Positions 7,219 to 60,049 of a DNA stretch of 64,000 nt are shown in pieces. The notes below the pieces were generated by a model. That model did no database searches. It was not told where the DNA came from and saw nothing but the letters and a program-made list of their open reading frames with translations. The stretch is from Pseudomonadota bacterium (lineage in GTDB: Bacteria; Pseudomonadota; Alphaproteobacteria; Sphingomonadales; CAKZYD01): positions 4,856 to 68,855 of the forward strand of contig JBCCAR010000018.1 of NCBI GenBank assembly GCA_039814715.1, given 5' to 3'. The position numbers were made by a program, and so were the translations under genes. Each line of letters starts with the position of its first letter. Within the stretch, counting starts at the first letter, position 1.

Positions 7219-7224
7219 AGCGCG

Positions 7225-8175: not shown

Positions 8176-8282
8176 TGAGTTACATCCATTCGGCCTGTCT
8201 GTGCTGGCCTCAAACACAGCAATAATTTAACCATCATATCATACACAGCAAGGGCGCAAGTGCGACGTCGCTGCGGCGAGAT

Positions 8283-9908: not shown

Positions 9909-9933
9909 CGCTGCGATAGCTGCGTTAAATGGA

Positions 9934-10008
9934 TGGTGGGCGGTACTGGGATCGAACCAGTGACCCCTTCGATGTCAACGAAGTGCTCTCCCGCTGAGCT
10001 AACCGCCC
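9934..10008 (-). tRNA. tRNA-Val (anticodon GAC)
   Basis: The reverse complement is GGGCGGTTAGCTCAGCGGGAGAGCACTTCGTTGACATCGAAGGGGTCACTGGTTCGATCCCAGTACCGCCCACCA. This is 75 nt with a full cloverleaf, anticodon loop TTGACAT, T-loop GGTTCGATCC and an encoded CCA. Confidence 0.95.
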
Positions 10009-10199
10009 TTTAGGCCCGTCGTGCCTATAGTGGACGCGGACATACACTGCCCGAATAAGGCATGGCAAGCGCAAAAACGATGCAGCACTAAGCACTGCGA
10101 TTGCGCGGCCCGGTGCGAGTTGTTACACAGCAGGCCATATAGATACTTTGGCAGCCAATTCGCGCGCCTGCTGAGAAGACCTTTAGAAAGATAAGACCC

Positions 10200-10763
10200 A
10201 TGAAAATTGACGGAAATGCCATTCGCCCCGGCAATGTGATCGAGTATGAGGGTGGGCTATGGCGCGCTGTTAAAATCCAGCATACGCAGCCGGGCAAGGG
10301 CGGGGCTTATCTGCAGGTTGAGCTAAAAAACCTGATCGAAGGCACGAAGAAAAATGAGCGCTTTCGGTCCTCGGCAAAAGTCGAAAAAGTCAGGCTGGAT
10401 CAGAAGGATTTTCAGTTTTTATTCGGTGATGGCGATACGTTCACCTTCATGGATCAAGACACCTATGACCAGATTGCTTTGCCTGCTGAAGACGTTGGCG
10501 AACAGGCTGTCTTTCTGCAAGACGGCATGGTGGTGACCATTGAAATGTATGAGGAGAAGCCAATTTCGGTTGCTTTGCCAGAGCATGTTACGTTGGAAAT
10601 AACCGAAACCGAACCCGCCATTAAGGGGCAGACGGTGACCTCTTCCTATAAGCCTGCGATGACAGACATCGGCGTGCGCGTCATGGTCCCGCCGTTTATC
10701 GATCAAGGCACAAAAGTGGTCGTGGCGACGGAAGATTCGACCTATGTAAAGCGCGCGGAATAG
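10200..10763 (+). CDS. efp: Elongation factor P
   Basis: 187 aa beginning [44 protein letters not shown]. Confidence 0.95.
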
Positions 10764-10772
10764 GTCGCTCAG

Positions 10773-11594
10773 ATGCCCTTTCAATCAGCGCTTATTAACG
10801 TCATGACCCAGGCGGCCCGCAAGGCCGCTTGGAATATGACACGTGACTTTGGCGAAGTAGAACAGTTGCAGGTCTCCAAAAAAGGCCCAGCGGACTTTGT
10901 CAGCCAGGCGGATCGGCAAGCCGATGAAATTTTGCGCGAGGAGCTGACGCGTGCTCGCCCTGATTTTGGTATTGTTCTGGAAGAATCAGGTGCAACAAAC
11001 GTGCGTCCAGACGGTCCGCGCTGGATTGTGGACCCCATCGACGGGACCAGCAATTTCCTGCACGGCATTCCCCATTTTGCCATCTCGATTGCCGCCGAAC
11101 AATATGGCGAGATCACCGCTGCGATCGTTTATGAGCCGCTGCAAGACCAGCTTTTCTGGGCGGACAAAGGGCGCGGGTGCTATCTCAATGAGCGCCGCCT
11201 GCGTGTCTCTGGGCGCCGCAAGCTTGACGAATGTTTGTTTGCAACGGGTATCCCTTTCAAAGGGCGCGGGGGTTTCGGCCGTTTTAGTCATATCCTAGAT
11301 GAAGTGATGCCCCAGGTGGCTGGTATCCGACGCTTTGGTGCAGCGTCGCTGGATTTGGCCTATGTGGCCGCTGGCCGCTTTGATGGGTTTTGGGAAGAAG
11401 ATTTAAAGGAGTGGGATATCGCTGCCGGAATGTTCCTGGTGAGAGAAGCCGGCGGCATTGTGACAGATATCCGCGGCTCTGATCAGATGCTGAAGACAGG
11501 CGGCCTTGTCGCCGCCAACAGCGCGATCCATAGTCAACTCCACAAGTTGATTGCGCGGGGCATTAAAGCCCATAGAGATGCCCAAGAGGATTAG
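10773..11594 (+). CDS. suhB: Inositol monophosphatase family protein (SuhB-like)
   Basis: IMPase motifs WIVDPIDGTSNFLHG and WDIAAG are present. 273 aa. Confidence 0.88.
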   Translation: MPFQSALINVMTQAARKAAWNMTRDFGEVEQLQVSKKGPADFVSQADRQADEILREELTRARPDFGIVLEESGATNVRPDGPRWIVDPIDGTSNFLHGIPHFAISIAAEQYGEITAAIVYEPLQDQLFWADKGRGCYLNERRLRVSGRRKLDECLFATGIPFKGRGGFGRFSHILDEVMPQVAGIRRFGAASLDLAYVAAGRFDGFWEEDLKEWDIAAGMFLVREAGGIVTDIRGSDQMLKTGGLVAANSAIHSQLHKLIARGIKAHRDAQED

Positions 11595-44442: not shown

Positions 44443-44823
44443 ATGCAGCTAACGAAGAACGACCCCGGGGATAAGTTTTTGATCAGCGGTTATAGCGACA
44501 CGGGGTTCCGCGTCGCTGGCAAGGTGCAAGACGGCGCCGTGCTGGTCTCAAGCGTCTATGCAGAGCCAGCGCCCATTGACGTCTTCGAAGCGATTGATGA
44601 CAGCGCCGCTGACACGATTGCGGCCCTTCTCGGGCCGCTGGATGTGTTGCTCATCGGGACCGGGAAATCGATGAAAGTGTTACCATCGGCAGTGCGCGCT
44701 GCGTTTGAGCGCTGCGGCGTTCCAGTGGACGTGATGGATACGGGCGCAGCTGCGCGAACTTACAATGTACTGGTCATGGAAGATCGGCGCGCAGCTTGCC
44801 TTTTGTTTCCCAGTGGCGCTTGA
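44443..44823 (+). CDS. Mth938-like (DUF498) protein, homologue of the mitochondrial complex I assembly factor NDUFAF3
   Basis: 126 aa with LISGYSDTGFRVAGKVQDGAVLV, LLIGTGKSM and TGAAARTYNVLVMEDRRAACLL. Confidence 0.75.
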   Translation: MQLTKNDPGDKFLISGYSDTGFRVAGKVQDGAVLVSSVYAEPAPIDVFEAIDDSAADTIAALLGPLDVLLIGTGKSMKVLPSAVRAAFERCGVPVDVMDTGAAARTYNVLVMEDRRAACLLFPSGA

Positions 44824-45652
44824 TCCTATAACCAGCAGCTGCGCGCAGCAGCTGCGCACTCTCGATCATAGTGCATATATTGGCTGCCTCTTTGCCGATC
44901 CGCGCGATCAGCCAGCCTTGATTGCCTTGCAGGCCTATAATGGTGAGCTAGCCCGCATAAGAGAGAGCGTGAGCGAACCTATGCTCGGTGAAATCCGTCT
45001 TACGTGGTGGCGCGAAGCCCTGGAAGGAGCGGAAGTGGGAAACGTGCGTGAACATCCCGTAGTGAAGGCCCTTGCGCCGCATATTCAAAATGGCGCTCTT
45101 GGTTCGGACGCTCTGCTGTCAATGATCGATGCGCGCCAGCAAGATTTGTATGAAGAAGGGCCAAAAGATCGCCGCAGCGTCAGCGACTATGCTGCAAGCA
45201 CGGGCGGCGCACTCTATAGCTTAGCCATTGCAGCAAGCGGCGGTGATGTACAGGCGCAGGCACGTGCAGGCATTGTTGGTGCGGCTGCGACCTTGGTTGG
45301 TATTGTCCGCTCTGTTGCCTTTCACGCACAGATGCGGCGCTCGCACATGCCAGAAGATGTCCTGCAAGACATGGGTTTGCAGCGCGACGCGGTCTTCCAA
45401 GGGCAATTCACCGCAGACCTGAAGATGTATCTGCAAGAGGCTGGAAATGAAGCGTTAGAAAGCCTAACCCAAGGCCTGAGAAGCGATTGGTCCGCGCGCC
45501 ATAGGCGGGCGCTTGCGCCTTTGGTTTTTGCCGCCAGAACGGCCAAAGCCTTAGCGCGGAATGGGTTTGATCCAGAAAAACCAACCAATAGCGCATCTTT
45601 ACCCGGCACCATCTTACGGACCTGGTGGTTTGTATGGACTGGCAGAGTTTAA
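44813..45652 (+). CDS. Squalene/phytoene synthase family protein, NDUFAF6-like
   Basis: LQAYNGELARIRESVSEPMLGEIRLTWWREAL is typical of the trans-IPPS head-to-head fold family. The ORF opens at 44765. The GTG at 44813 is the likelier start; it overlaps the upstream gene by 11 nt. Confidence 0.7.
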   Translation: MALDPITSSCAQQLRTLDHSAYIGCLFADPRDQPALIALQAYNGELARIRESVSEPMLGEIRLTWWREALEGAEVGNVREHPVVKALAPHIQNGALGSDALLSMIDARQQDLYEEGPKDRRSVSDYAASTGGALYSLAIAASGGDVQAQARAGIVGAAATLVGIVRSVAFHAQMRRSHMPEDVLQDMGLQRDAVFQGQFTADLKMYLQEAGNEALESLTQGLRSDWSARHRRALAPLVFAARTAKALARNGFDPEKPTNSASLPGTILRTWWFVWTGRV

Positions 45653-47861: not shown

Positions 47862-48641
47862 CTAGGCAGCTGTCCCCAGGTAGCCTAGTTGTGCGGCTTT
47901 GAAGATCGTTTGCGAGCGGTTGACTGTGTTCAGCTTTTCGCCAGCATTTTTGATGTGGAAGCGGATGGTGGCGTGGCTGCGCGAGAGGATCATGGAGATC
48001 TCTCGGTCGGTCTTGCCGACGGCAGCCCAGCGCAAACACTCAACTTCGCGTTTTGTCAGCTGGCAATCCGATGGGACGAGCGAGCGGCCGCGGGTTGCTT
48101 TGACATAGCCGGTGATGAAGCGGTGCGCTAGGACTTGAAGGTCGTCAGCGTGCTGGCCAAAATCATCAGACAGGTCTTCGCGGTTGTCGCGCGGCGCAAG
48201 CGACATGGCGCCAATTTGACCTAGCGGTAAATGCACAGGCACAATGATGCCCGAGCGAATGCCGGAGCGTTTTTCAAAGTCAGAGACGTCAATTTCATCC
48301 AAGAATGGATTGGGTTGACGCGGGTAGAACCCTTCAACATTGCACCAGAAGGGCTCGTTCTCGTAGCGGCACGCGCGCGGCACTGGGCTGGTAAGAGCGA
48401 GGCGGGAATTCTTCCACCATTGTTCGCTTTCATCCGTCCAGCCAAAGACTGTCTCAGCGAGGATGTTCCCATCCTGGTCTTTCATTGGAATTTTGGAGGC
48501 AATGTTATCGCAGGCAGCGATGCGATAGCCGCCAATCGCCTCTGCCATATCGCGCAGCTGGACGGCTGCTGGCAAAACATCCTCTACAGTTTGAATTGCA
48601 AATTCATAGTGATCGGCAACGATTCCCATAAAGCTCCCCAC
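47862..48641 (-). CDS. LuxR family transcriptional regulator with an N-terminal autoinducer-binding-like domain (solo; no luxI in window)
   Basis: The C-terminal HTH reads LTKREVECLRWAAVGKTDREISMILSRSHATIRFHIKNAGEKL. The N-terminal domain of about 180 aa has LuxR/TraR-receptor size and pattern (PFWC..., IIVPVH). Confidence 0.82.
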   Translation of the reverse strand: MGSFMGIVADHYEFAIQTVEDVLPAAVQLRDMAEAIGGYRIAACDNIASKIPMKDQDGNILAETVFGWTDESEQWWKNSRLALTSPVPRACRYENEPFWCNVEGFYPRQPNPFLDEIDVSDFEKRSGIRSGIIVPVHLPLGQIGAMSLAPRDNREDLSDDFGQHADDLQVLAHRFITGYVKATRGRSLVPSDCQLTKREVECLRWAAVGKTDREISMILSRSHATIRFHIKNAGEKLNTVNRSQTIFKAAQLGYLGTAA

Positions 48642-48896
48642 GGATAAGAGTTGACCGGTCTTGCAAGAAAAGGCGGGTGCTTCGCTTTTACGAATGTCAT
48701 GGCCTGGTCATGCAAGGTGAATGCGCGAGCCAACACGCCTGAGAACAGATAGCTCAGCAAAGTGGGGGCTAACGAATTCGAGAGCATGGCTATCACGGGT
48801 TGAGGAAAAAAACAAACAGTCCAGCATGTTTCTTGTGCGGCGCAGCAAAATTCGGTGTCTGCGCGGCGTTTTTGCGGGCGGACTTTTCGCCTATCT

Positions 48897-48915
48897 TTCT
48901 AGAGTAGTTCTAGAG
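48897..48915. promoter_or_regulatory. Twin TCTAGA palindromes (TTCTAGAG direct repeat, 11-bp phase) in the luxR/operon divergent spacer
   Basis: The sequence is TTCTAGAGtagTTCTAGAG. The TCTAGA hexamers are at 48898-48903 and 48909-48914, one helical turn apart. The site lies about 210 bp upstream of the Rieske gene and about 255 bp upstream of luxR. Confidence 0.3.
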
Positions 48916-49126
48916 CGCCAACTTGTGGCCTGAATGGGTTGATTTTTCAGTGGCTTTCCAGAGTTGGCTGGGCCTTTTGCCTCGTTCTTTACTGCTGCAG
49001 TGCACAATCATACGAGGCGTCGTTTTTTGCAGGCAGCATGAAAAGCCATCACTTTGATTCGGTTGTCAGGTGTGTGCTGCCTGGTTGATATGGTGGGGTG
49101 AAACGACTGGGAGCGCCGCGCGCTGT

Positions 49127-49471
49127 ATGACGACCCTTTTGAAACTATGCGATTTGGCTGATCTGCCTGACAAGCGCGCTGTGGTGCACGGTGCAGAAGA
49201 GATAGCGGTCGCACTGTGCAGGGTGGGTGACCGCGTTTATGGATTTGAGGCGCGTTGCTCGCATGCTTTGAAGCCATTGGACGGCGCGCGTGCGCGCGGC
49301 GGTAGTTTGATGTGCCCGCATCATGGCGCGCGATTTGATCTTGCCACAGGCAAGCATCTGGCAGCGCCTGCAGTGCGCGGCATAAAGGCTTATGAAATTC
49401 GCATTGAAAACGAAGAGGTGTTTGTTGTGATGTCTGCGAAAGGTCAGCCGTTGGGGGGAGAGGATGCTTGA
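49127..49471 (+). CDS. Rieske [2Fe-2S] ferredoxin-type protein
   Basis: 114 aa with the Rieske ligand motifs CSHA and CPHHG (CxH...CxxH). The start is placed at ATG 49127; the ORF opens at 49070. Confidence 0.82.
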   Translation: MTTLLKLCDLADLPDKRAVVHGAEEIAVALCRVGDRVYGFEARCSHALKPLDGARARGGSLMCPHHGARFDLATGKHLAAPAVRGIKAYEIRIENEEVFVVMSAKGQPLGGEDA

Positions 49472-50228
49472 GGGCAAACGCGCACTTGTGACTGGGGCCG
49501 GCTCTGGCCTGGGTCAAGCCATTGCATCGCACTTTGCAGCGCTTGGTGCGTTCGTGATTGGGAGTGATGTTGACGCGCAAGGCCTCAAAGAAACACAGGA
49601 TTTGGCCGCAGCCGGTCATTTTGAAGGCATTCATCATGACGTGACCCAGCCAGATGATTGGCAGAAGGTGATAGGCGCCGCCTTTGAGAGCGGCTCTTGC
49701 GATATCTTGGTGAATAACGCCGGGGTGGCGGATTTGACATCCTTCAGCAACATGACTTTAGAGCGCTTTCAGCGCAGCTGCGCCGTCAATCTTCTAGGGC
49801 CTTTTGCTGGATCGAAACTATTCATTGAGGCCGCGCGCAAGGCGTTTAGTGAAAAGCCAGCTTATGCGTCGATCATCAACATAACCTCTATCGTCGTCGA
49901 GCGGATGATCCCCGGCGCTTGCGCTTATGGAACCTCTAAAGCTGCGCTGAAAAATCTCACAAAGGCACTGGCAGTGGAGATGGGGCGAAAGGGAGATTTT
50001 ATTCGCGTCAACGCTGTCGCGCCTGGGCCCGTGCGTACGTCGATGACGGAAGGCGCTGCTGATGTTCCTTGGGATGAGCGCGACCATAGTTTTCTTAATT
50101 TGATCCCGCTGCAGCGTTACGGCGAAAAAGAAGACGTTGCAAAAGCCGCAGCGTACCTCGCTTCAGATGCTTCTAAATTTACAACTGGCGCCACCATTCA
50201 CGTGAGCGGCGGGTGGAGCGATCTATGA
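49464..50228 (+). CDS. Short-chain dehydrogenase/reductase (SDR)
   Basis: The cofactor motif TGAGSGLG, NNAG and the catalytic YGTSK are present. 254 aa. It overlaps the upstream gene by 8 nt. Confidence 0.88.
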   Translation: MLEGKRALVTGAGSGLGQAIASHFAALGAFVIGSDVDAQGLKETQDLAAAGHFEGIHHDVTQPDDWQKVIGAAFESGSCDILVNNAGVADLTSFSNMTLERFQRSCAVNLLGPFAGSKLFIEAARKAFSEKPAYASIINITSIVVERMIPGACAYGTSKAALKNLTKALAVEMGRKGDFIRVNAVAPGPVRTSMTEGAADVPWDERDHSFLNLIPLQRYGEKEDVAKAAAYLASDASKFTTGATIHVSGGWSDL

Positions 50229-50998
50229 CCAATGTGCGTAAACTAGAGGGTATGATTGCCTTGGTGACCGGCGCGACATCCGGCATTGGCCGGGAAATTG
50301 CGTGTCTCTTTGCCCGTCACGGCGCGACGATCATTGCCACCGGGCGCAATCGCGAGCAGGGTCAAAAAACTTGCGACATGATTGCTGCGGAGGGCGGCCA
50401 AGCGGTCTTCTTCCGTCAGGATATTACGAGCGAAAACGACTGGCAGGACCTGTTTGAGTTTATTGAAGAAAAAACGGGGGTGCTAGACATCGCTGTCTAT
50501 AATGCTGGCGCGTTTTTCTCGCGATCGCTGCCCGATACGTCAATTGAGGATTTTAACTGGCTGTGGTCTGTGAATGTCGATGCAACATTTCTCGGCATCA
50601 AGCACGCCTTGGCGCATATGCGAAGGCACAAAAGCGCCGGCAGCATCATGACCATGTCGTCGCTTGCGGGATTGATTGGACTGGATGATTGCACGGCCTA
50701 TTGCGCTTCAAAAGCAGCGGTGACCCAGCTTGCAAAAGCTGCCGCGGCAGAAGGCGCGCGCTATGATCCGCCCATCCGCGTGAACTCAATCAATCCAGGC
50801 GTTATCTGGACGGAAATGATTACCGGCGAATACGGCGAATCTGATGAAGTGCGCGCATTTGCGATGGATGGCAATGCGCTGCAAACGGTTGGGGAAGCAA
50901 TCGATATTGCAGAAGCTGCGCTCCATTTAGCCAGCAGCGACAGCAGCTATACAACAGGGACTGCCTTCGTGGTCGATGGCGGCCGCGGTGTGGATTGA
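50225..50998 (+). CDS. Short-chain dehydrogenase/reductase (SDR)
   Basis: TGATSGIG, NAG and the catalytic YCASK are present. The ATG 50225 overlaps the upstream stop; the ORF opens at 50213. Confidence 0.88.
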   Translation: MTNVRKLEGMIALVTGATSGIGREIACLFARHGATIIATGRNREQGQKTCDMIAAEGGQAVFFRQDITSENDWQDLFEFIEEKTGVLDIAVYNAGAFFSRSLPDTSIEDFNWLWSVNVDATFLGIKHALAHMRRHKSAGSIMTMSSLAGLIGLDDCTAYCASKAAVTQLAKAAAAEGARYDPPIRVNSINPGVIWTEMITGEYGESDEVRAFAMDGNALQTVGEAIDIAEAALHLASSDSSYTTGTAFVVDGGRGVD

Positions 50999-51010
50999 GG
51001 ACATAAGACC

Positions 51011-52036
51011 ATGAGCAATAAACGTGTTTTGCTAAAGCAGCGGCCCAGCGGCCAGCCTGCCCAAGCTGATTTCGAGTGGGTGGAGCAACCCCTGCCAGAG
51101 CCTGGCGATGGCCAGCTGCTGATCCGCAACATCTATTGCTCGCTTGACCCCGCCATACGTGGCTGGATGGATGATGCGGAAAGCTATTTCCCGCCCATTG
51201 GCATAGGCGAGCCTATCCGTTGCACGACGATCGCGCAGGTGGCTAAGTCCAACCACTCTGACTTTTCTGAAGGCGATTATGTTGTCGCGCTAACAGGCGT
51301 TGAAGAATATTCCGTTGCCGATGCAGGTGGCTTCACGAACAGAGTTGATCCTTCCATCGTGCCAGCGCTGACAAACTATCTCTCTGTGCTTGGCGCAGTT
51401 GGTCTGACGGCTTATTTTGGATTGCTAGACGTAGGGCAACCGAAGCCAGGGGAGACAGTTCTGGTCTCTGGCGCTGCTGGCGCGGTCGGCTCCCTTGTTG
51501 GGCAGATTGCAAAACTTCGGGGTTGCCGCGCTGTTGGCATTGCCGGGGGGCAGGCGAAGTGCGAGCGGCTTGTGCAAGACTACGGCTTTGACGCAGCCGT
51601 AGATTATCGCGGAAAAGACCTCGCGGCTCTAACGGCCGATATCGCTGCAGCCTGCCCAGGCGGCGTGGACGTTTATTTCGATAATGTAGGCGGCGGTATC
51701 CTGGATGCGGCGCTGGCCAATATCAACGACAATGCCCGCATCCCCATGTGCGGCATGATTAGCCAATATAATGCGACCGAGCCGGTCCCAGGGCCGACGA
51801 ACCTCTGGCAGCTCATAGCGAAAACAGCGGACATGAAGGGCTTCCTCATTCGAGATTTTGTGCCGCAATTTCCGCAAGGGATTGAGCAAATGGCTGCCTG
51901 GATCTCAGAGGATAAGCTGGTGTTTAAAGAGCATGTCGATCAGGGCATCGAGAACTTTCTGGTGTCCTTCAATAAGCTTTTCTCAGGCGATCACAATGGC
52001 AAGCTAGTGCTGCAGATCGCGCCAGAAACCCTGTGA
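51011..52036 (+). CDS. NADP-dependent medium-chain oxidoreductase (zinc-independent MDR, alkenal/enone reductase-like)
   Basis: The cofactor motif VLVSGAAGAVGSLVGQIAKLRG and the C-terminus GKLVLQI resemble the PTGR/CurA/YncB subgroup. 341 aa. Confidence 0.8.
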   Translation: MSNKRVLLKQRPSGQPAQADFEWVEQPLPEPGDGQLLIRNIYCSLDPAIRGWMDDAESYFPPIGIGEPIRCTTIAQVAKSNHSDFSEGDYVVALTGVEEYSVADAGGFTNRVDPSIVPALTNYLSVLGAVGLTAYFGLLDVGQPKPGETVLVSGAAGAVGSLVGQIAKLRGCRAVGIAGGQAKCERLVQDYGFDAAVDYRGKDLAALTADIAAACPGGVDVYFDNVGGGILDAALANINDNARIPMCGMISQYNATEPVPGPTNLWQLIAKTADMKGFLIRDFVPQFPQGIEQMAAWISEDKLVFKEHVDQGIENFLVSFNKLFSGDHNGKLVLQIAPETL

Positions 52037-52842
52037 TGCCCATCAAAACTCTTTTGGTGACCAAGGGTCATCCATTTGAGAAAGGACCATTTTTTAAGTG
52101 GATTGATGGCGTGGAGGGCCTCGATGTGACGCATATTGAGCACCCGGCCGCTGAGAGCTTTATTGGTGCAGGCCTGGGCGCGCCTTATGATCTCTGGCTG
52201 ATGTACGATATGCCAGGATATGACTTTAAATCCACCGGCGGTGTTGATTTTATAGACCCAAATCAAGGCTTTAAATACGCTATTTCACATCGCCTGCAAG
52301 CGCAGAAGAAACCCATTTTGTTTCTGCATCATGCGCTTGCGGGATGGCCGACATGGCCAACCTACGGCGAGATTGTTGGTGGGCGTTTCTTGTACCGCGC
52401 AGGCGATGTACGCGGCGCTCGCAAGCTCGATAGCGGCTACCGCCATGACGTCACCTACCAAGTCACGCTCGCGGAGCATGCGGTTTGTGACGGGGTTTCA
52501 CCCTTTAAAGTTCAAGACGAACTCTATCTTGCTGAAGTGTTCGAAGAGGACGTCTTGCCTATTGCCTGGTCGGACTATGACTTTACAGGGGAGAATTTTT
52601 ATTCAGCCTCTCGCGCGGTCGATGGAGAAATGTTCTCAAATGATGGCTGGGATCATCCTCCAGGCAGCAATGTCGTTGCTTGGCTAAACGCCTATGAGCA
52701 AGCACCGATCGGCTATTTACAAATGGGCGATGGGCCCACTGCTTATGCCAATCGCGGTGTGACACGGTTGCTTTCAAATATGGTACACTGGCTGGTAAGC
52801 CAAGACGCAGCCCATTGGGCGAAGGAGTGGCAAAGTGCCTGA
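52033..52842 (+). CDS. ThuA-domain protein (class I glutamine-amidotransferase-like fold)
   Basis: TLLVTKGHPFE and PILFLHHALAGWPTWPTYGEIVGGRF match the ThuA pattern as I remember it. The start overlaps the upstream stop. Confidence 0.55.
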   Translation: MMPIKTLLVTKGHPFEKGPFFKWIDGVEGLDVTHIEHPAAESFIGAGLGAPYDLWLMYDMPGYDFKSTGGVDFIDPNQGFKYAISHRLQAQKKPILFLHHALAGWPTWPTYGEIVGGRFLYRAGDVRGARKLDSGYRHDVTYQVTLAEHAVCDGVSPFKVQDELYLAEVFEEDVLPIAWSDYDFTGENFYSASRAVDGEMFSNDGWDHPPGSNVVAWLNAYEQAPIGYLQMGDGPTAYANRGVTRLLSNMVHWLVSQDAAHWAKEWQSA

Positions 52843-53581
52843 AACCACGCGGGATTTAACCGGCAAAGTCGCTATTGTTACTGGCGCTGCTAGCGGGATT
52901 GGCCGAGCAGCTGCGATACAATTCGCCAAAGACGGCGCGCAAGTGCTCGCAGTCGACATCAATGACTGTGACCTCGGTGCTGCAGCGAATATGCGCGCGC
53001 TCAAGCAAGATGTTAGCTTTGAAGGTGCCGACGATGCGATTCAAGACGCAGCGCTGGAGGCCTTCGGGCGGATCGACATTTTGGTAAACAATGCGGGCGT
53101 GTGTTTGACCGCGCCCTTCGAGACCCATAGCGAGGATGTTTGGCGCAAAACCATGGCGATCAATGTGGATGCTTGCTTTGCGTTGAGCCGCGCTTGTTTG
53201 CCTGCGCTCAAAGCCGCTGGGGCAGGGCGTATCATCAATATTGGCTCCATCATGTCAGATTACGGCGCGGCGGATATGGCGGCCTATGCCACATCAAAAC
53301 ATGCTGTTGCGGGTTTGACGAAGTCTATGGCCAATGAGCTGGGGCAATTTGGCATTACGGTGAACTACATTCAGCCAGGCGCAATCCGTACAGGCATTAC
53401 CGTTCCCACATTTGAAAATGTAGCTGGGTTTGAGGACTATTGGATTGAGCGCGCGCCCGTTGGCCGCATTGGTGAGCCAGAAGACGTCACACCGCTCATC
53501 AGCTTTCTTGCGAGCGAAGAATCGCGCTTCATTACTGGCCAAGGCATCTTGGTTGATGGCGGTGCCACCAGCCACCCCTAG
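52835..53581 (+). CDS. Short-chain dehydrogenase/reductase (SDR, FabG-like)
   Basis: TGAASGIG, NNAG and the catalytic YATSK are present. GTG start overlapping the upstream gene by 8 nt. Confidence 0.88.
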   Translation: MPETTRDLTGKVAIVTGAASGIGRAAAIQFAKDGAQVLAVDINDCDLGAAANMRALKQDVSFEGADDAIQDAALEAFGRIDILVNNAGVCLTAPFETHSEDVWRKTMAINVDACFALSRACLPALKAAGAGRIINIGSIMSDYGAADMAAYATSKHAVAGLTKSMANELGQFGITVNYIQPGAIRTGITVPTFENVAGFEDYWIERAPVGRIGEPEDVTPLISFLASEESRFITGQGILVDGGATSHP

Positions 53582-53596
53582 AAACAGGAGAGCAAT

Positions 53597-53968
53597 ATGA
53601 CGCCCATTGAAACAGTTGAAATGTTCATTGATGCCTGGAACCGGATGGCCTGGGGCCGTGTGACGGAAATGGTGTCGGCCGATTGTGTGTATCACAACAT
53701 CCCGATGCAGCCCGTTACTGGTCCAGAGGGCGTACGCTCTGTGATTGAAAGTCTGGGCGACATTAAAGGCGTGGACTGGGAAATCTTAAACATAGCGGAA
53801 AACGGCAATGTGGTGCTCACCGAACGTATTGACCGGTTTGCCATGGGCAGCGGCGCACATATTGAAATTCCAGTCATGGGAACCTTTGAAGTGGAAGAGG
53901 GCGAGATCACCGCTTGGCGTGACTATTTTGATCTTGGCCAACTGACGGCGCAGATGCAGGCTGGCTAA
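53597..53968 (+). CDS. Limonene-1,2-epoxide hydrolase family protein (NTF2/SnoaL-like fold)
   Basis: 123 aa. VYHNIPMQPVTG, VLTERIDRF and GEITAWRDYFD follow the LEH family pattern. Confidence 0.72.
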   Translation: MTPIETVEMFIDAWNRMAWGRVTEMVSADCVYHNIPMQPVTGPEGVRSVIESLGDIKGVDWEILNIAENGNVVLTERIDRFAMGSGAHIEIPVMGTFEVEEGEITAWRDYFDLGQLTAQMQAG

Positions 53969-54047
53969 GCCCCTTAGTTTGAGCAGTCTCTTTGCTGCAC
54001 GCAAATGCGTAGTTTGGTAGCAGTGACGAAATCGCCTGGAGGGCGCC

Positions 54048-55289
54048 ATGACCAAACCGCTGTCAGAGTATAATTTCTTCGATCCTGCTTTGATTGAAGA
54101 CCCGTTTGAATTTTATCAGGCTGCAATGGCGCAGGCCCCGATATATCAGATCCCAGGCACCAATTTTTTCTTGGTGACGAAATACGATATCGTCGCCAAA
54201 GCCCTGAAACGTCATGATGTGTTTTCAAACAACTTCGGCGCGATGCTGGCAGGGAGTAACGCGGAAGATCCAGACGTGAAGGCGATTTTGGATGAAGGCT
54301 GGCCCCAGGCGGACACGCTGCTTACCAATGATCCGCCAAGCCACACGCGCTTTCGCAAGCTCGTCAATCTTGCTTTCAGCCAAAAGCGCGTCAACCAAAT
54401 GGAGGAGTATATTCGCTCCATCGCTAATGAGCTAATCGACCAATTCATTGACGACGGCGAATGCGATTTTATGCAGGCGCTGGCCATCCCCCAGCCTGTC
54501 GCGGTCATCGCCGAACAATTGGGGGCCGACCGCTCTGAAGCGGCAACGTTTAAACGTTGGACAGATGCTTTCGCAGACCGGATTGCTGGCAATTACGGAA
54601 AAGAGCGCGAAATCGAATGCGCCAAAGACGTCGTGGAATTTCAAAAATACATGTTTGAAAAACTGCAAGAGCGTAAAAACAAGCCGCAAGATGATCTCCT
54701 GACTGACCTTGTCCAGGCCCGCATAGATGGAGAGCAGCCACTCACGGACGCTGAGCTTCTCTCCATTGTGCAGCAGCTTATGGTCGCTGGCAATGAAACG
54801 ACAACGAACACCATGGCTGGCGGCTTGCTGCAGTTAATCCAAAACCCCGAGCAAATGGCCAAAGTGCGCGCAGAGCGCAAGCTCATTCCAAACATGGTGG
54901 AAGAAGTGCTGCGGCTTGAATCAGCTACGTCTGGCATGTGGCGTGTTGTGAAAGAAGATACTGAGCTGGAAGGGGTCAGTGTCCCGGCTGGTTCCATGCT
55001 GCACTTGCGCTATGCGGCGGCGAACCGTGATCCTGATAAGTTTGAAAATCCAAATGATTTTAAAGTTGATCGGAAAAATGCCAACAAGCAGATGGCTTTT
55101 GGTCAAGGCATTCATGTGTGCGTCGGGCAGATGCTTTCACGCAAAGAGCTGTGCATTGCCTATGACATCATCTTCGATCGCTTGAATAATATTCAGCTCG
55201 CCGAAGGGAAAAACGATCTCAAGCACATGCCCAATGTGATGCTTCGCGGCCTGAAAGAACTGCACATCACCTTTGACAAGGCTGCGTAA
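54048..55289 (+). CDS. Cytochrome P450 monooxygenase
   Basis: The heme-thiolate loop FGQGIHVCVGQMLSR, the I-helix VAGNETTTN and the K-helix EEVLRLES (ExxR) are present. 413 aa. Confidence 0.93.
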   Translation: MTKPLSEYNFFDPALIEDPFEFYQAAMAQAPIYQIPGTNFFLVTKYDIVAKALKRHDVFSNNFGAMLAGSNAEDPDVKAILDEGWPQADTLLTNDPPSHTRFRKLVNLAFSQKRVNQMEEYIRSIANELIDQFIDDGECDFMQALAIPQPVAVIAEQLGADRSEAATFKRWTDAFADRIAGNYGKEREIECAKDVVEFQKYMFEKLQERKNKPQDDLLTDLVQARIDGEQPLTDAELLSIVQQLMVAGNETTTNTMAGGLLQLIQNPEQMAKVRAERKLIPNMVEEVLRLESATSGMWRVVKEDTELEGVSVPAGSMLHLRYAAANRDPDKFENPNDFKVDRKNANKQMAFGQGIHVCVGQMLSRKELCIAYDIIFDRLNNIQLAEGKNDLKHMPNVMLRGLKELHITFDKAA

Positions 55290-55826: not shown

Positions 55827-58085
55827 CTAGCGCCGCCGTCGGCCAAGCCGCACATTTTTTGGCCGTCCTTGCTGCGGCCTTGAATTAGGGCGTTTGCGTT
55901 TTGAAGGTCCGTCTAAAAAGCGGTGTTTGGGCTTTGTTAAAATACTCACACGCACCCCGCCGGAGACGGGGGCGGCTTCTTCAATGCGCGCACGCACCTC
56001 ATCGCCCAGCCTGTAGGCCCAGCCTGACCGCTCGCCCACCAGTGCTTGGCGCGTTTCATCATAGACCATGTATTCGTCCGATAGGCGCGCGGCAGGCGCG
56101 AAGGCATCTGCGCCCATATCGCCAACGCGCAGGAATAGCCCAGCTTTGGCAATCCCCGTGATGCGGGCCTCAAAATGCTCACCTTGATGATCAGCAAAAT
56201 AGGCTGCGAGATAGCGGTCCATGGAATCGCGCTCAGCGGCCATCGCGCGCCGTTCAGTGACGGAGATATGGTCGGCCGTGTCGTCCAGCTTTTGCAGTTC
56301 CCACTCCTCTAGCCCGCCTTCGCCCAGCTTGTAAGCGGCGATCAAGGCCCGGTGGACGACGAGGTCCGCATAGCGGCGGATGGGGGAGGTGAAATGCGCG
56401 TAGCGGCCAAGGGCCAAGCCAAAATGGCCCATATTTTCAGGCGTATAGCGCGCTTGCATCTGCGTGCGCAGCACCATATCCGACACGCCAATCATATCCT
56501 CGCGCTCTTTTGACATTTCAAGCACGCGGTTAAAGACCTGGGGCCGCACGACTTGGCCGCGTGCCAGCTTATAGTCAAAGCCATCAAGGAAGCTGCGCAG
56601 CGTCTCCATCTTATCCATGGAAGGCTCTTCATGGACGCGGTAAATCAGCGGCTGGGCTTTTTTCTCTAGCGCTTCCGCCGCTGCAACATTCGCGGCAATC
56701 ATCATGTCTTCCACGACGCGGTGGGCTGTCAGCCTGTCTCTCAAACGCACATCAGAAACCTTGCCATCTGGCCCGAGCAGGATTTTCTTTTCCGGCAAGT
56801 CCAGCGCAAGCGGGCCGCGCTTGTCGCGGGCAGAGGCAATGGCGTTATAGCATTCCAGCAGTGGCCGTAAAACACTATGGATCAAGGGTTTGGTTGCATC
56901 ATCTAAGTCGCCATCAAAGGCTGCTTGGGCTTGCTCATAGCTAATATTGGCTGCGACTTTGATGAGTGCGCGGCTAAAGCGATGGCTCTTCAGCCGCCCA
57001 AGGGCATCAAAATACAAATGCACCGCAAGGCTCGCCCGGTCTTCGCCTTCTTTCAGGCTGCACAGGCCGTTTGATAGCGCTTCGGGCAGCATCGGCACCA
57101 CGCGGTCAGGGAAGTAGCAGCTGTTGCCGCGCTTGCGTGCCTCCTTATCCAGCGCAGATCCGGGACGCACAAACTCAGCGACATCCGCAATGGCCACGAT
57201 CGCATGAAATCCGCCTTCGATATTAGGGTGCGGCGCGGCCCAAATGGCATCATCATGATCACGCGCATCGGCGGGGTCGATGGTGATCAGCGGTACATCA
57301 CGCAGGTCTTCGCGCGCGCCCAGCGGCGGCATCACGGCTGTTTCAGCTAGCTGCACAACCTCGCTGGGGAAGTCGTTGGGGATATCATGCTGGTGGATGG
57401 CAATGAGGCTCACATTGCGCGGGCCCAGTACATCGCCGAGCCGCTCTAAGACCTTTCCTACCTTTGCGCCGCGCTGGCTTGAGCGCAGCACTTCCGCGCG
57501 GACCAATTCCCCATCTTCCGCGCCTTTGTCGTCGCCGGAGGCTACCAGCAGAAAATCGCTTCGACCTTTCTCTACTGACTCAATGAAGCCGCCTTCGCCG
57601 TCATGGCGATAGACGCCCACCATCGCCCGCGGCGGGGCGTCCAGCTTTTTAATGATCTGGCCGCGATAGCCTTTGTCGCCCGCTGGGCGCAGCCGGGCCA
57701 GGACCTTATCGCCTGCCGCAAGCGAAGAAGGGCGCTGGCGCGATTGGCGTCCCCCTTTTTTAAAGTCCTCCAGCCGCACACGCGGCCCATCGCCATCGCC
57801 CTTCCAGGCTTCCGCAAAGCCAAAGGCGCTGCCGCTCTCGCTGATGCCCGTCACATAAACAATAGAGACATTGGGCATTTGCCCGGCCAGTTCATAGCCC
57901 TTGCCTGGCCCGCGCGCGATCATGCCCCGCGCCACCATCTCACGCAGCAGCGTCTTCAAAGCGACACGGTCTTCACCCTTAATGCCAAAGGCATTGGCCA
58001 GGTCACGGCGAGTCACCTTGCTGTCAGCATTTTCTATATAAGAAACAATGTCTTCCGCGAGCGGGAAGGGCGTATCTGTCGTCAT
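55827..58085 (-). CDS. rnr: Ribonuclease R
   Basis: 752 aa. The RNB domain carries ITIDPADARDHDDAIW and HFGLALGRYAHFTSPIRRYADLVVHR. A C-terminal S1 domain and a basic tail follow. Confidence 0.94.
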   Translation of the reverse strand: MTTDTPFPLAEDIVSYIENADSKVTRRDLANAFGIKGEDRVALKTLLREMVARGMIARGPGKGYELAGQMPNVSIVYVTGISESGSAFGFAEAWKGDGDGPRVRLEDFKKGGRQSRQRPSSLAAGDKVLARLRPAGDKGYRGQIIKKLDAPPRAMVGVYRHDGEGGFIESVEKGRSDFLLVASGDDKGAEDGELVRAEVLRSSQRGAKVGKVLERLGDVLGPRNVSLIAIHQHDIPNDFPSEVVQLAETAVMPPLGAREDLRDVPLITIDPADARDHDDAIWAAPHPNIEGGFHAIVAIADVAEFVRPGSALDKEARKRGNSCYFPDRVVPMLPEALSNGLCSLKEGEDRASLAVHLYFDALGRLKSHRFSRALIKVAANISYEQAQAAFDGDLDDATKPLIHSVLRPLLECYNAIASARDKRGPLALDLPEKKILLGPDGKVSDVRLRDRLTAHRVVEDMMIAANVAAAEALEKKAQPLIYRVHEEPSMDKMETLRSFLDGFDYKLARGQVVRPQVFNRVLEMSKEREDMIGVSDMVLRTQMQARYTPENMGHFGLALGRYAHFTSPIRRYADLVVHRALIAAYKLGEGGLEEWELQKLDDTADHISVTERRAMAAERDSMDRYLAAYFADHQGEHFEARITGIAKAGLFLRVGDMGADAFAPAARLSDEYMVYDETRQALVGERSGWAYRLGDEVRARIEEAAPVSGGVRVSILTKPKHRFLDGPSKRKRPNSRPQQGRPKNVRLGRRRR

Positions 58086-58207
58086 GGCGAGACGTTAGCG
58101 CGTTTAGATGGCCCTTGTCGAAAAGGATTTGTTCGCATGGTATAAAAAATAGAACGTACCACGCTGCATAGTGCACGTGTGAGCCGCTCACTCACAGCAG
58201 CGCATGC

Positions 58208-58231
58208 AAAAACAGGGGCGCAAGGCCCCTG
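58208..58231 (-). terminator. Rho-independent terminator after the first sorting-signal protein gene
   Basis: Read on the minus strand: CAGGGGC-cttgc-GCCCCTG followed by TTTTT. It lies about 30 nt past the stop at 58260. Confidence 0.7.
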
Positions 58232-58259
58232 TGTTCGAAATTCCTAACATGTCTCTGGA

Positions 58260-58955
58260 TCAGCCTGCGGATGGCATGCCCAGCGCTTTACGGATTGACC
58301 TGCGGCGCAGGGCGCCCGCGCCGAGGAGCGCAGAGCCGAACAGAATGCCTGCAGCTGGGACGGGTACGGCGGAAACAGTGAGCTCAAAGGTGCCTGCATT
58401 AGGATCGTTATCGCCTTCCCAAAAAGCAATCTCGTACAGGCCTGCCTCCAAAGAGGAGAACAGAACAGTGCCGCTTTCTAGGGTGTCGTTGAAAACGCTA
58501 TTTGGATCAGAGTCAAAGTTGTCGCCGATGCGTTGGCAATTCTGGGCACCGCCGCCGGAGGCCACGTTGGCGCAATTTACAGAGAGGTTGGCTGCATTCG
58601 CCGTTACAATCGTACGGTCGGGTGTGGTCACATCGGTTCCACTAATATTCGCGCCATTCGGCAGTCGGAACAAACCAAAGCCAGAGGAGCCGTCTTCATT
58701 GCCAGCGCTTGTATAGTCAGCGAGGGTTAGCGAGAACTGCGGTGTTAAAACTTCAAAACGGATCGTGCCTGAGGCGACATTCCCACTTTGCGTATCAAAC
58801 GTGGCCTTCAGGGTATTGCCACCACTACCAATATCACTGAAAACAGCTTGGTTCTGGGTGAAATGGTAACTGTCGAACGTCGCTGCCTGGGAAGATCCAA
58901 TGAGGCACATCGCTGCCACACTAGACATCAAGGCGATAGAAAGAGACTTGCTCAT
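58260..58955 (-). CDS. Secreted protein with a VPLPA/PEP-CTERM-like C-terminal sorting signal (paralogue 1)
   Basis: Signal peptide MSKSLSIALMSSVAAMCLIGSSQA. The body is Gly/Asn/Ser/Thr-rich and probably beta-rich. The C-terminus reads VPVPAAGILFGSALLGAGALRRRSIRKALGMPSAG. Confidence 0.75.
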   Translation of the reverse strand: MSKSLSIALMSSVAAMCLIGSSQAATFDSYHFTQNQAVFSDIGSGGNTLKATFDTQSGNVASGTIRFEVLTPQFSLTLADYTSAGNEDGSSGFGLFRLPNGANISGTDVTTPDRTIVTANAANLSVNCANVASGGGAQNCQRIGDNFDSDPNSVFNDTLESGTVLFSSLEAGLYEIAFWEGDNDPNAGTFELTVSAVPVPAAGILFGSALLGAGALRRRSIRKALGMPSAG

Positions 58956-59173
58956 AGATAAATACCCTTACGCAACATAAACAAAAGAGGCGCTAAAACA
59001 CTCGCGCTTGCCGAGTAGTGAGCAAATTGAGTGCCAAGACGGCTAAGGGTTTGAATTATCGGGAGTTTAAGACTGGCGCGCGCTGATTTTTTGCTAAGCT
59101 GTTAAAGATACCGACAGTCCTGGGTTGCGCCGGTTATCGTTCATGGCCTGCATTGCGGGTATAGACGAGACAC

Positions 59174-59200
59174 AAAAAAAGGGGCCGAGGCCCCTTTTTT
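59174..59200. terminator. Bidirectional rho-independent terminator after the second sorting-signal protein gene
   Basis: A7, then GGGGCC-ga-GGCCCC, then T6. It lies 23 nt past the stop at 59223. Confidence 0.8.
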
Positions 59201-59222
59201 CAAACTGTTTGCCAATGAAGGA

Positions 59223-59828
59223 CTAGGCAGCGGTCGGCATACCCAGTGTTTTTTGGATCGACCGGCGACGAAGGAACGCCGCGCCAAATAGAGCAGAGCC
59301 GAAAAGAATGCCAGCTGCCGGTATCGGCACCTCTGACAACGTAAACTGTATCAAAGCGGTCTGCGGAGTGTTATTTTGATCGTCTATTTCTAACACATAA
59401 TCACCTGGGGCCAGGTTTGAGAACAAAATGGTGCCTGGCTGCGGCCCATTGGCGTTAGAACCTTCAGGTCGCAAAACAAAACATCCAAGGTTGGTACTCG
59501 TAATTCGACCTGAGCAATTTTGAGTGGAAATATCAACTGGTGGTGGCGCCCCAGTATTTGTTGAGTACAAACCGGCTAGAGAGCCCCCAGACGTGCTACT
59601 ATCGCCATAAGTTGAAAACGTAAGCTTAGTCGCCACTGTCGTTGAAAAAGACCAAAAAAGCTCGCCCGGAAAAGTAAAAGTTGCTGGAGATTCCAAAATA
59701 TCTCCAGGTCCCGCACTCGTGGCAGTCGCCGGTAACGTTGTCGAACCATTTATCGTCGCCGCGTTTGCAGCACCGAGCACTGATGACATACAAAAAACTG
59801 CACCAGCAATAAAACTAGAAAAATTCAT
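59223..59828 (-). CDS. Secreted protein with a VPLPA/PEP-CTERM-like C-terminal sorting signal (paralogue 2)
   Basis: The start at ATG 59826-59828 has GGAGG 6 nt upstream. Signal peptide MNFSSFIAGAVFCMSSVLGAANA. The C-terminus reads VPIPAAGILFGSALFGAAFLRRRSIQKTLGMPTAA. It shares the GT(I/V)LFS.L..G.Y block with paralogue 1. Confidence 0.75.
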   Translation of the reverse strand: MNFSSFIAGAVFCMSSVLGAANAATINGSTTLPATATSAGPGDILESPATFTFPGELFWSFSTTVATKLTFSTYGDSSTSGGSLAGLYSTNTGAPPPVDISTQNCSGRITSTNLGCFVLRPEGSNANGPQPGTILFSNLAPGDYVLEIDDQNNTPQTALIQFTLSEVPIPAAGILFGSALFGAAFLRRRSIQKTLGMPTAA

Positions 59829-60049
59829 TAAAACCTCCAAATGCAGGATTGATCACAATATAAAGCTGCTCGTACTGCAAGACAGTATTTTCGTGTAGGC
59901 AAGCAAAACCCATGCCAAACTCACAATGCGCTGTTTTGGCACACTTTTTTTGCAAGTGCGAAATCGCGTTAACCATGGGTTGTAAAAAAGTCCGACAATT
60001 CACTTTGGTTCGCTTCTAAAGTGTATGACGGTTTGTTCCTCTAAAAGGA

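Follow-up and report, generated by a model that had tools for sequence, protein, structure and literature searches.

The limonene/carveol route of Rhodococcus erythropolis DCL14 employs a limonene-1,2-epoxide hydrolase (LEH; limA), a short-chain dehydrogenase/reductase (SDR; limC) and a carvone reductase. In the degradation of limonene and carveol, hydroxylation by a cytochrome P450 is followed by an SDR and then by an enone reductase, and an epoxide passes through an LEH to a diol dehydrogenase. Prostaglandin inactivation proceeds through the SDR 15-hydroxyprostaglandin dehydrogenase (15-PGDH) and then through a prostaglandin reductase (PTGR), which is a medium-chain dehydrogenase/reductase (MDR). 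Here, we analyzed a 64,000-nucleotide stretch of contig JBCCAR010000018.1 (assembly GCA_039814715.1, Sphingomonadales), hereafter the window, with a focus on an operon of eight genes and the divergently oriented gene for a LuxR-type regulator. The operon encodes a Rieske-type ferredoxin, three SDRs, an MDR, a ThuA-like protein, an LEH-family protein and a cytochrome P450. With moderate confidence, we interpret the LuxR gene and the operon as a substrate-inducible unit whose enzymes form the oxidoreductive front end of a route that degrades or detoxifies an exogenous hydrophobic alkene or alicyclic compound. This compound would have C=C or allylic alcohol groups and could be a terpenoid, alicyclic, steroid-like or oxidised lipid molecule.

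The locus shares with the DCL14 route an LEH with the same catalytic residues, SDR alcohol/diol dehydrogenases and enone double-bond reduction, and the common logic is the conversion of an alkene to an epoxide or allylic alcohol, then to a diol or enone, and finally to a saturated ketone. In contrast to DCL14, the oxygenase of the cluster is a P450, and the ThuA-like, Rieske ferredoxin and LuxR genes are additional. The LEH identity to DCL14-type chains is low (62 bits), and no lactone hydrolase is present in the cluster or in the relatives examined. The Baeyer-Villiger monooxygenase LimB that characterises limABC likewise has no counterpart, as no flavin monooxygenase domain was found in the eight proteins or in the domain-labelled clusters of relatives. 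Class I P450 operons for terpenoids (P450cam camDCAB, P450terp, P450cin, and CYP111 for linalool) resemble the locus in co-transcribing a soluble P450 gene with those of an iron-sulfur carrier and one or more alcohol dehydrogenases, a set that in these operons serves the initial oxidation of a hydrophobic growth substrate. However, the carrier is here of the Rieske type instead of a Cys4 [2Fe-2S] ferredoxin, a reductase gene is missing, and the regulator is of the LuxR type instead of the TetR or AraC type. Finally, the locus resembles the pair of 15-PGDH and prostaglandin reductase/leukotriene B4 (LTB4) 12-hydroxydehydrogenase in that its MDR belongs to the same ADH_N_2 family and its SDRs could make an enone. 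The MDR scored 196 bits against TIGR02825, which is below the cut-off, and 175-210 bits against PTGR1 and PTGR2 structures. Unlike the eicosanoid pair, it is encoded in a bacterial operon together with a P450, an LEH and a ThuA-like protein, and the likeness is drawn at the level of the families. The first-pass annotation of this DNA had recognised no named pathway, and we agree: no curated equivalog, solved close relative or publication assigns the gene set to a characterised pathway, which would have refuted that annotation, and neither open-access literature nor curated hidden Markov model libraries yielded a description of the gene set, of the pairing of this ThuA-like protein with an MDR, or of the LuxR clade.

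Results

Operon structure

The first-pass annotation had placed eight open reading frames (ORFs) on the + strand at 49127-55289, and all of them were present there, with the Pfam families as claimed and with the motifs FGQGIHVCVGQ and WRDYFD in the translations (Table 1). Its junction distances were reproduced exactly upon recomputation (-8, -4, +12, -4, -8, +15 and +79 nt), the start of the ThuA-like gene overlapping the MDR stop codon, and Shine-Dalgarno-like purine runs precede most of the starts. The proposal of a single transcript was also sustained, both by this tight coupling and by pattern scans for internal promoter- and terminator-like sites in the operon, which gave no excess over shuffled sequence. 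A division of the operon by internal promoters or terminators was rejected on the latter ground. The genes are real and not chance ORFs, because homologues with 48-86% identity occur in the same order on five other contigs. None of the eight proteins reached an NCBIfam equivalog cut-off.

The spacer between the LEH and P450 genes starts with a block (53969-53990; CCCCTTAGTTTGAGCAGTCTC in the window, consensus CCCCayATATTCGgyAGTCyC) that is kept in six loci, in contrast to the rest of the spacer. RNAalifold gave no conserved pairing for this block, which might act as an internal promoter, as a processing site or in protein binding. Rfam had no match at E<=1 in the 497-bp leader or in the spacers. 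Given this empty result and the lack of a conserved fold in the block, we discarded a riboswitch or another known RNA in the leader or the spacers.

Conservation of the LuxR gene and the operon

Relatives of the locus were found with the ThuA-like protein as anchor and were given L-numbers as labels. The order LuxR (- strand) followed by Rieske-SDR-SDR-MDR-ThuA-SDR-LEH-P450 recurs unchanged on five other contigs, namely L002 (a 1.28-Mb JGI contig), L006 (ERZ1740067, a contig of a Sphingomonadales metagenome-assembled genome (MAG), which is also the metagenome match L096 and was counted once), L007 (a Pseudomonadota MAG), and L093 and L094 (Logan assemblies). On these contigs, the proteins share with those of the window identities of 80-89% for LuxR, 81-86% for LEH, 76-78% for the MDR, 72-78% for the P450, 64-70% for ThuA, and 50-65%, 70-76% and 72-75% for SDRs 1, 2 and 3, respectively. 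The Rieske ferredoxin is the least conserved (48-55%). While the left neighbour, a trmFO-like gene, is mostly common to the loci, the right neighbour varies (LysM/RNase R in the window, ligA elsewhere), and the conserved unit therefore ends at the P450. The LuxR gene and the eight genes thus constitute one conserved unit. It follows that the regulator, which the first-pass annotation had described as sitting beside the operon, is indeed adjacent to it but is not a mere neighbour. Likewise, the genes are not scattered in related genomes, an outcome by which that annotation would have been refuted, since the order is the same on five contigs and close to it in cultured Sphingomonadales.

Several loci carry additional genes. 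A TonB-dependent receptor of about 1100 amino acids (aa) is encoded between the trmFO-like gene and LuxR in L093, L094 and L006, and a glutathione S-transferase (GST) gene follows 5 nt past the P450 gene in L093 and L094. Both are absent from the window. In the cultured Sandarakinorhabdus sp. DWP1-3-1 (L086; GCA_049896705.1, contig JAFCUV010000002.1), the LuxR gene (64% identity) is divergent from Rieske-SDR-SDR-MDR-SDR-LEH-P450 (59% identity for the P450), which is followed by the order ACAD-SDR-ThuA2-ACAD, where ACAD stands for acyl-CoA dehydrogenase and ThuA2 for a second ThuA-like subfamily described below. The cultured Sphingosinicellaceae bacterium M-36 (L013; JBEUDS010000003.1) has LuxR (69%) next to SDR-SDR-MDR-ThuA-SDR-LEH-ACAD, lacks the Rieske and P450 genes, and has ACAD and ThuA2 genes also close by. 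L088 adds three Rieske-oxygenase alpha subunits, a fatty-acyl-CoA-ligase-type gene and TonB receptors. The two ACADs resemble PimC and PimD, the small and large pimeloyl-CoA dehydrogenase subunits, with scores below the cut-offs. We considered that in L013 the ACAD might be a non-orthologous replacement of the P450, with concomitant loss of the Rieske gene. This idea was rejected, because the same ACAD follows the P450 in five other loci (L086, L087, L088, L033 and L059), and L013 therefore simply has no P450.

P450 and Rieske ferredoxin

The P450 has the hallmarks of its family, namely the heme loop FGQGIHVCVGQ, the ExxR motif EVLR and the I-helix motif AGNETT, and its PF00067 score of 121 bits is well above the cut-off of 22.8. 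Among solved P450s, 8yhn comes closest (210 bits), with about one third of the residues identical on inspection, and no NCBIfam P450 equivalog came near its cut-off. The subfamily comprises more than 120 database clusters at >=55% identity, all of which are named only 'cytochrome P450', and relatives occur in Sandarakinorhabdus, Parasphingopyxis and Polymorphobacter. On a Nostoc plasmid, a P450 with 51% identity is encoded by a solitary gene. The P450 orthologue of L006 (12182-13423), the nearest relative in the genome collection, has an in-frame TAG at codon 104, where the window has Lys, and is 78% identical in the rest of the gene; this reflects either a pseudogene or an assembly or sequencing error.

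The Rieske protein has the ligand motifs CSH and CPHH. It matched PF00355 with 46 bits and HcaC-type NCBIfam models with 58-62 bits against cut-offs of 113-150, and neither a partner oxygenase alpha subunit nor a reductase for it was found in the window. Furthermore, none of the cluster versions examined includes a ferredoxin reductase. A role as dedicated partner of the P450 was rejected, as co-occurrence does not support it. Although co-occurrence does not tie the two proteins together, the Rieske protein is the obvious candidate for the electron carrier.

SDRs, MDR and epoxide hydrolase

All three SDRs have the TGxxxGxG and YxxxK motifs and scored 191-203 bits on PF13561 (adh_short_C2), and none reached a specific equivalog cut-off. 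No solved relative of SDR 2 or SDR 3 was found at E<=1e-45. According to the rules for classical SDRs, the Asp after beta-2 suggests a preference for NAD(H) in SDR 1 and SDR 3, and the TGRN motif suggests a preference for NADP(H) in SDR 2. The MDR is a member of the broader ADH_N_2 double-bond-reductase group. It is not a CurA equivalog, as it scored 377 bits against the CurA model NF058644, below the curated cut-off of 440. Among solved structures, it is closest to the Pseudomonas oxidoreductase 4b7c (383 bits), with plant double-bond and pulegone reductases and prostaglandin reductases next in rank.

The catalytic residues of the R. erythropolis LEH (Re-LEH) are D101, R99, D132, Y53 and N55. 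The LEH-family protein of the window scored 92 bits on PF07858 (cut-off 24) and aligned from end to end to its best solved relatives 5aif, 5aih and 5aii, which were deposited as limonene-1,2-epoxide hydrolase (E about 1e-27). The motifs VYHNIP, TERIDRF and WRDYFD align to the same motifs in these structures, and Y32, N34, R77, D79 and D109 align to the catalytic counterparts. The LEH is thus predicted to be catalytically intact, and, judged from their sequences, the LEH, the MDR and the P450 all look catalytically competent.

These enzymes would also suit an operon that serves detoxification instead of growth. It would neutralise environmental electrophilic lipids, i.e. epoxides and alpha,beta-unsaturated aldehydes or ketones such as algal or plant oxylipins, by hydrolysing epoxides, reducing or oxidising carbonyls and saturating double bonds, and LuxR would sense the toxin. 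The apparently intact LEH is in line with this explanation, as are the inclusion of alkenal and 15-oxoprostaglandin reductases in the MDR family, the GST gene after the P450 in L093 and L094, the location of the operon amid housekeeping genes instead of in a catabolic island, and the window version being without a transporter, a CoA ligase and a cleavage enzyme. As the reductase, the transporter and the later steps are encoded elsewhere or perhaps absent, pure detoxification stays plausible. Nonetheless, we consider it unlikely, since a P450 that makes epoxides or alcohols would be superfluous for this purpose, and since in relatives these genes keep company with a CoA ligase, PimCD-like ACADs, a thiolase and Rieske oxygenases, all of which are assimilation functions.

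The ThuA-like protein

The ThuA-like protein belongs to a subfamily that we termed ThuA1. Its match to PF06283 (34.5 bits, cut-off 33.4) covers only residues 95-253, the C-terminal two thirds, and it has no NCBIfam match. The family includes 958 protein-database clusters at E<=0.001, and more than 573 matches are listed in species-representative genomes. An alignment of 28 sequences with 46-70% identity has 46 invariant positions, which include six His (H13, H99, H100, H138, H149 and H208), five Asp/Glu (D59, D133 and E163 among them) and five Trp, and also Tyr. No Cys is conserved, and ThuA1 is therefore not a thiol enzyme of the glutamine-amidotransferase type. The AlphaFold (AF2) model has a pLDDT of 96. 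Its best solved fold match is 4e5v, a structural-genomics entry named 'ThuA-like' (TM-score 0.64, 14% identity), and other class I amidotransferase-like folds come next.

We counted the neighbours of ThuA1 in the best 80 of the more than 573 genome loci; many of these loci are incomplete and the counts are minima. An MDR of the ADH_N_2 type lies within 300 bp in 22 of the 80 loci, within 3 kb in 35 and within 10 kb in 42. The corresponding numbers are 12, 26 and 39 for a P450, and 0, 10 and 17 for a Rieske ferredoxin. The presence of a ThuA-domain protein, which the first-pass annotation found unusual in such a context, is thus ordinary: ThuA1 is habitually located beside MDRs, P450s and SDRs in hundreds of species. 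On plasmid pNL2 of Novosphingobium aromaticivorans, and likewise in N. humi, the stop codon of the MDR gene shares 1 nt with the start codon of the ThuA gene. The pNL2 pair sits between two TonB receptors, and in both species TonB receptors, SDRs, NTF2-like proteins and a Rieske protein are encoded nearby. On a Rhodococcus megaplasmid, the ThuA1 homologue is found among genes for a Rieske oxygenase (RHO) alpha subunit, VOC, MaoC, OB-fold and thiolase proteins, a CoA-transferase and ACADs. As to the role of ThuA1, the best clue is that its translational coupling to the MDR is conserved.

The family name comes from the ThuA proteins of the rhizobial and Agrobacterium thuEFGKAB operon for trehalose utilisation, where the partner ThuB is a nicotinamide-dependent oxidoreductase. 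ThuA1 resembles them in Pfam family (marginally), in fold and in adjoining a nicotinamide-dependent oxidoreductase as its probable co-worker, but differs from them in its genomic company, which consists of lipid/hydrocarbon-type catabolic genes. Neither a ThuB (Gfo/Idh/MocA) gene nor a sugar ABC transporter was found in the window cluster, in the domain- or product-labelled contexts of relatives, or in three plasmid contexts of ThuA1 homologues. Accordingly, a canonical trehalose-type ThuA was rejected. The founding paper on thuEFGKAB, as listed among the references of PMC6683767, is titled for the formation of 3-keto derivatives.

The frequent company of P450s raises another explanation, in which the MDR and ThuA1, perhaps together with the Rieske ferredoxin, deliver electrons from NADPH to the P450 in place of the missing reductase, with ThuA1 as redox mediator. 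The lack of a reductase in all cluster versions examined agrees with this, and so do the neighbourhoods within 10 kb, where ThuA1 is accompanied by a P450 in 39 of 80 loci, by an MDR in 42 and by a Rieske ferredoxin in 17. In addition, ThuA and ThuB are named together as degradation genes of thuEFGKAB in the review PMC6683767. We nevertheless regard such an electron supply as very improbable: about half of the ThuA1 loci have no P450 within 10 kb, MDR-ThuA pairs occur on their own alongside TonB receptors and SDRs, neither a flavin nor a metal-cluster motif was recognised, and the MDR is of a bona fide type that reduces double bonds of substrates.

ThuA2, the second subfamily (about 245 aa), is present together with ThuA1 in over 20 of the 80 genome loci. 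It travels with the PimC/PimD-like ACAD pair and an SDR (L086, 11236-15100; L088, 11236-15065; L013, 12181-16890; and many of L003-L083). In tblastn (E <= 1e-6, at least half of the query covered), ThuA2 gave no match to the window ThuA, and the window is without this ThuA2/ACAD module. In L004/L005 (Azotimanducaceae; 9797-11164), the gene for a ThuA1 homologue precedes those for an SDR, an RPE65-family carotenoid/stilbene cleavage oxygenase and a P450, which hints that apocarotenoid- or stilbene-type compounds are among the substrates handled.

The LuxR-type regulator and the control region

The alignment of nine orthologues placed the start of the LuxR gene at ATG 48629, which gives a protein of 255 aa instead of the 259 aa of a GTG-started ORF. 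The protein scored 43 bits on PF03472 (Autoind_bind) and 53 bits on PF00196 (GerE), and only its C-terminal half aligns confidently to QscR, SdiA, RhlR and LasR. Orthologues with 58-89% identity adjoin the cluster in L002, L006, L007, L093, L094, L013, L086 and L088. The ligand-contact positions of TraR are W57, Y61, D70, P71, W85 and G113, and also Y53, among them D70, Y53 and Y61, which contact the acyl-homoserine lactone (AHL) in canonical receptors. Against TraR, all five aligned orthologues have the pocket substitutions D70S, Y53E and Y61W and either Gly or Ala at G113, in an alignment that used provisional TraR and LasR reference sequences and has low identity in the N-terminal half. The regulator thus lacks the conserved AHL-contact residues, D70, Y53 and Y61 being replaced. 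Moreover, no LuxI-type synthase was detected, as no Autoind_synth match was obtained among the window ORFs of 126-227 aa or the neighbours. Classical AHL quorum sensing was rejected on the basis of D70S and the absence of LuxI from the window.

In these respects, the regulator resembles the non-AHL LuxR solos (plant-associated OryR/PipR type; Photorhabdus PluR/PauR), which have Autoind_bind and GerE domains, changed AHL contacts, no nearby LuxI, and linked genes that are presumably regulated. It differs from other solos in the substitutions D70S, Y53E and Y61W and in its P450/SDR/MDR/ThuA neighbours. A Rhodococcus LuxR solo is reported, in the form cited by PMC13273656 (Fu et al. 2025, ref 39), to regulate dibenzofuran-catabolic genes.

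The control region contains two dyads (48833-48847 and 48993-49007) similar to the consensus TTGTGC-N3-GCACAA, which we take to be that of the TraR tra box, a likeness that serves as a lead only. The dyad is perfect in L007. Of eight loci that were compared, six have site 1 at a distance of 190-210 bp from the luxR start, and five have site 2 at 89-135 bp from the first gene of the operon. In an alignment of four intergenic regions, an invariant block, AAAAACAAAC (48800-48832), was found about 20 bp upstream of dyad site 1.

A metagenome scan anchored on LuxR returned more than 492 relatives, of which the best 80 (55-89% identity) were used for counting. At least one homologue of a cluster family is present in the flanks of 45 of these 80 loci, and of 29 of the 50 loci of at least 8 kb and 20 of the 28 loci of at least 15 kb. 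The commonest partners in the best 80 were two ACADs, ThuA2, SDRs, the P450, the MDR and the Rieske protein.

The linkage between the regulator and the enzymes could also mean that the operon is biosynthetic or tailoring. It would convert an endogenous lipid or isoprenoid to a signal that is detected by the adjacent LuxR, as a non-AHL cell-cell signalling pair like Photorhabdus PluR/PpyS or PauR/DarABC. There is precedent for LuxR solos with ligands made by neighbouring genes, no LuxI was found in the window, and a LuxR with a non-AHL pocket remains tightly linked to the enzyme genes across 58-89% identity. However, the cluster has no ketosynthase, terpene synthase, nonribosomal peptide synthetase/polyketide synthase (NRPS/PKS) or acyltransferase, its eight proteins are all of redox or hydrolytic tailoring types that are typical of degradation, and relatives carry genes for TonB receptor uptake and of the beta-oxidation type. 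A signalling operon therefore appears improbable to us. Uptake and assimilation of an exogenous compound are favoured over signal synthesis, because relatives carry TonB receptor, GST, CoA ligase, PimCD-like ACAD, thiolase and OB-fold, and Rieske oxygenase genes, and because a scaffold-forming enzyme is absent. The first-pass annotation had proposed either stepwise oxidation of a hydrophobic substrate or tailoring of a signalling lipid; the context in relatives favours the former, as catabolism or detoxification of an imported compound, and makes the latter less attractive.

Genomic surroundings

Upstream of the LuxR gene and the operon are secD, secF, an SQS_PSY-family gene, a DUF4332 gene and a gene for a GIDA-family FAD protein of 446 aa, which from its Pfam family and length is probably trmFO-like. 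The downstream flank has genes for a LysM/BON protein, RNase R (a label read from the 752-aa translation, and thus putative), topA and dprA. The GC content at third codon positions is slightly lower in the operon (0.52-0.60) than in the flanks (0.60-0.67), and the sole tRNA gene of the window (9934-10008) is far from the cluster. A signature of horizontal transfer was rejected, given that the drop is modest, the tRNA gene distant and the annotated neighbours housekeeping genes. Between RNase R and topA, the stretch 58001-60000 has a GC content of 0.50, compared to 0.55-0.60 in the adjoining stretches. The ORFs within it (58260-58955, -; 59223-59840, -; 58204-58716, +) have no Pfam match, and the stretch may be a small foreign or orphan insert. 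The SQS_PSY (squalene/phytoene-synthase-family) gene at 44765-45652 is located between secF/DUF498 and DUF4332, about 3.5 kb upstream of LuxR. By tblastn, a counterpart was found in L096 (44% identity; same contig as L006) and none in L002. The L006 contig begins inside the DUF4332 gene.

Table 1. Coordinates of the operon genes, the divergent regulator gene and the conserved non-coding elements in the window.
Feature	Position	Strand	Characteristics
Rieske-type [2Fe-2S] ferredoxin	49127..49471	+	114 aa, CSH...CPHH; PF00355 46 bits
Classical SDR 1	49464..50228	+	TGxxxGxG, YGTSK
Classical SDR 2	50225..50998	+	YCASK; TGRN motif
MDR, alkenal/enone double-bond-reductase type	51011..52036	+	ADH_N_2 + ADH_zinc_N; AAGAVG NADPH motif; PF16884 120 bits
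ThuA-like protein, subfamily ThuA1	52033..52842	+	PF06283 34.5 bits; class I glutamine-amidotransferase-like fold
Classical SDR 3	52835..53581	+	YATSK
LEH-family protein, 123 aa	53597..53968	+	PF07858 92 bits
LEH-P450 spacer, 79 nt	53969..54047	+	~21-nt conserved block CCCCTTAGTTTGAGCAGTCTC right after the LEH stop
Cytochrome P450, 413 aa	54048..55289	+	PF00067 121 bits; AGNETT, EVLR, FGQGIHVCVGQ
LuxR-type regulator, 255 aa	47862..48629	-	Autoind_bind + GerE; divergent from the operon
Divergent control region, 497 bp	48630..49126		two tra-box-like dyads + AAAAACAAAC block

Discussion

Going by the chemistry of the families, the proposed front end of a catabolic or detoxifying route would work as follows. 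The LuxR-type protein, with its remodelled pocket, would sense the substrate or an intermediate instead of an AHL and would act on the two dyads of the divergent promoter region. The P450 would epoxidise or hydroxylate the compound, with electrons possibly supplied via the Rieske ferredoxin from a reductase encoded elsewhere, and the LEH-family enzyme would open the epoxide to a vicinal diol. The two NAD-type SDRs would oxidise secondary or allylic alcohols to ketones or enones, and the NADP-type SDR may act reductively. The MDR would then saturate the conjugated double bond with NADPH, and the ThuA-like protein would work with the MDR, or directly on its substrate or product. Later steps, namely CoA activation, the PimCD-like acyl-CoA dehydrogenase and ThuA2, would be those encoded beside the same genes in relatives and not in the window.

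Several observations weigh against this assignment. No ferredoxin reductase, transporter, ring-cleaving oxygenase, Baeyer-Villiger monooxygenase or CoA ligase is encoded next to the window operon, and the eight genes alone cannot mineralise anything. Orthologous P450s occur without the Rieske ferredoxin in L030, L033 and L059, and in LuxR-anchored loci the Rieske ferredoxin is also found beside ACADs without a P450. Counted over the entire window, the dyads do not rise above chance (7 against 5.1 expected), and the evidence from the dyads is therefore one of positional conservation only. Furthermore, 21 of the 50 LuxR-anchored loci of at least 8 kb have no cluster homologue nearby. In L107, the one cluster-free LuxR locus examined, a LuxR with about 62% identity has no P450/ThuA cluster in its flanks and is divergent from genes for cytochrome c554-like (about 460 aa) and HbpS-like (653 aa) proteins (6415-9767, - strand).

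A cytochrome c554-like/HbpS-like module is also located directly after the Sandarakinorhabdus cluster (L086, 15194-21239), where it additionally includes a 614-aa protein and a 1352-aa protein with faint multiheme cytochrome c and weak LVIVD-repeat matches. This module may be a second regulon partner of the LuxR clade.

Every single family of the locus is already known, and so are LuxR solos with non-AHL pockets that control adjacent genes. Relatives were found in cultured Sphingomonadales, on Rhodococcus plasmids, in MAGs from several proteobacterial lineages and in metagenomes, Tara Oceans contigs among them. In its plainest form, the finding is a regulated oxidative operon for hydrophobic substrates that is conserved, widespread and experimentally tractable, with nothing mechanistically surprising yet. 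A farther-reaching proposal, which we make only tentatively and hold to be doubtful, is that the LuxR protein is a dedicated sensor of a non-AHL hydrophobic metabolite, and that together with the two ThuA subfamilies, the PimCD-like ACAD, the enone reductase and the P450 it marks a widespread, undescribed catabolic pathway for an abundant natural compound. ThuA-like proteins would in that case be catalytic outside sugar metabolism and act as one unit with a double-bond reductase.

Should our assignment be wrong, the locus would be one more accessory redox operon. If it is right, the locus would offer a handle on the ligand of a non-AHL LuxR solo, a long-standing gap, as this ligand would be expected among the substrates and intermediates of the neighbouring enzymes, and carriers of the locus are in culture. 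The occurrence of the neighbourhood in hundreds of species genomes would point to a likely missing turnover route for a common hydrophobic natural product. Finally, it would provide a new context for ThuA-like proteins, which were named for trehalose use and are here habitually and translationally coupled to an enone reductase.

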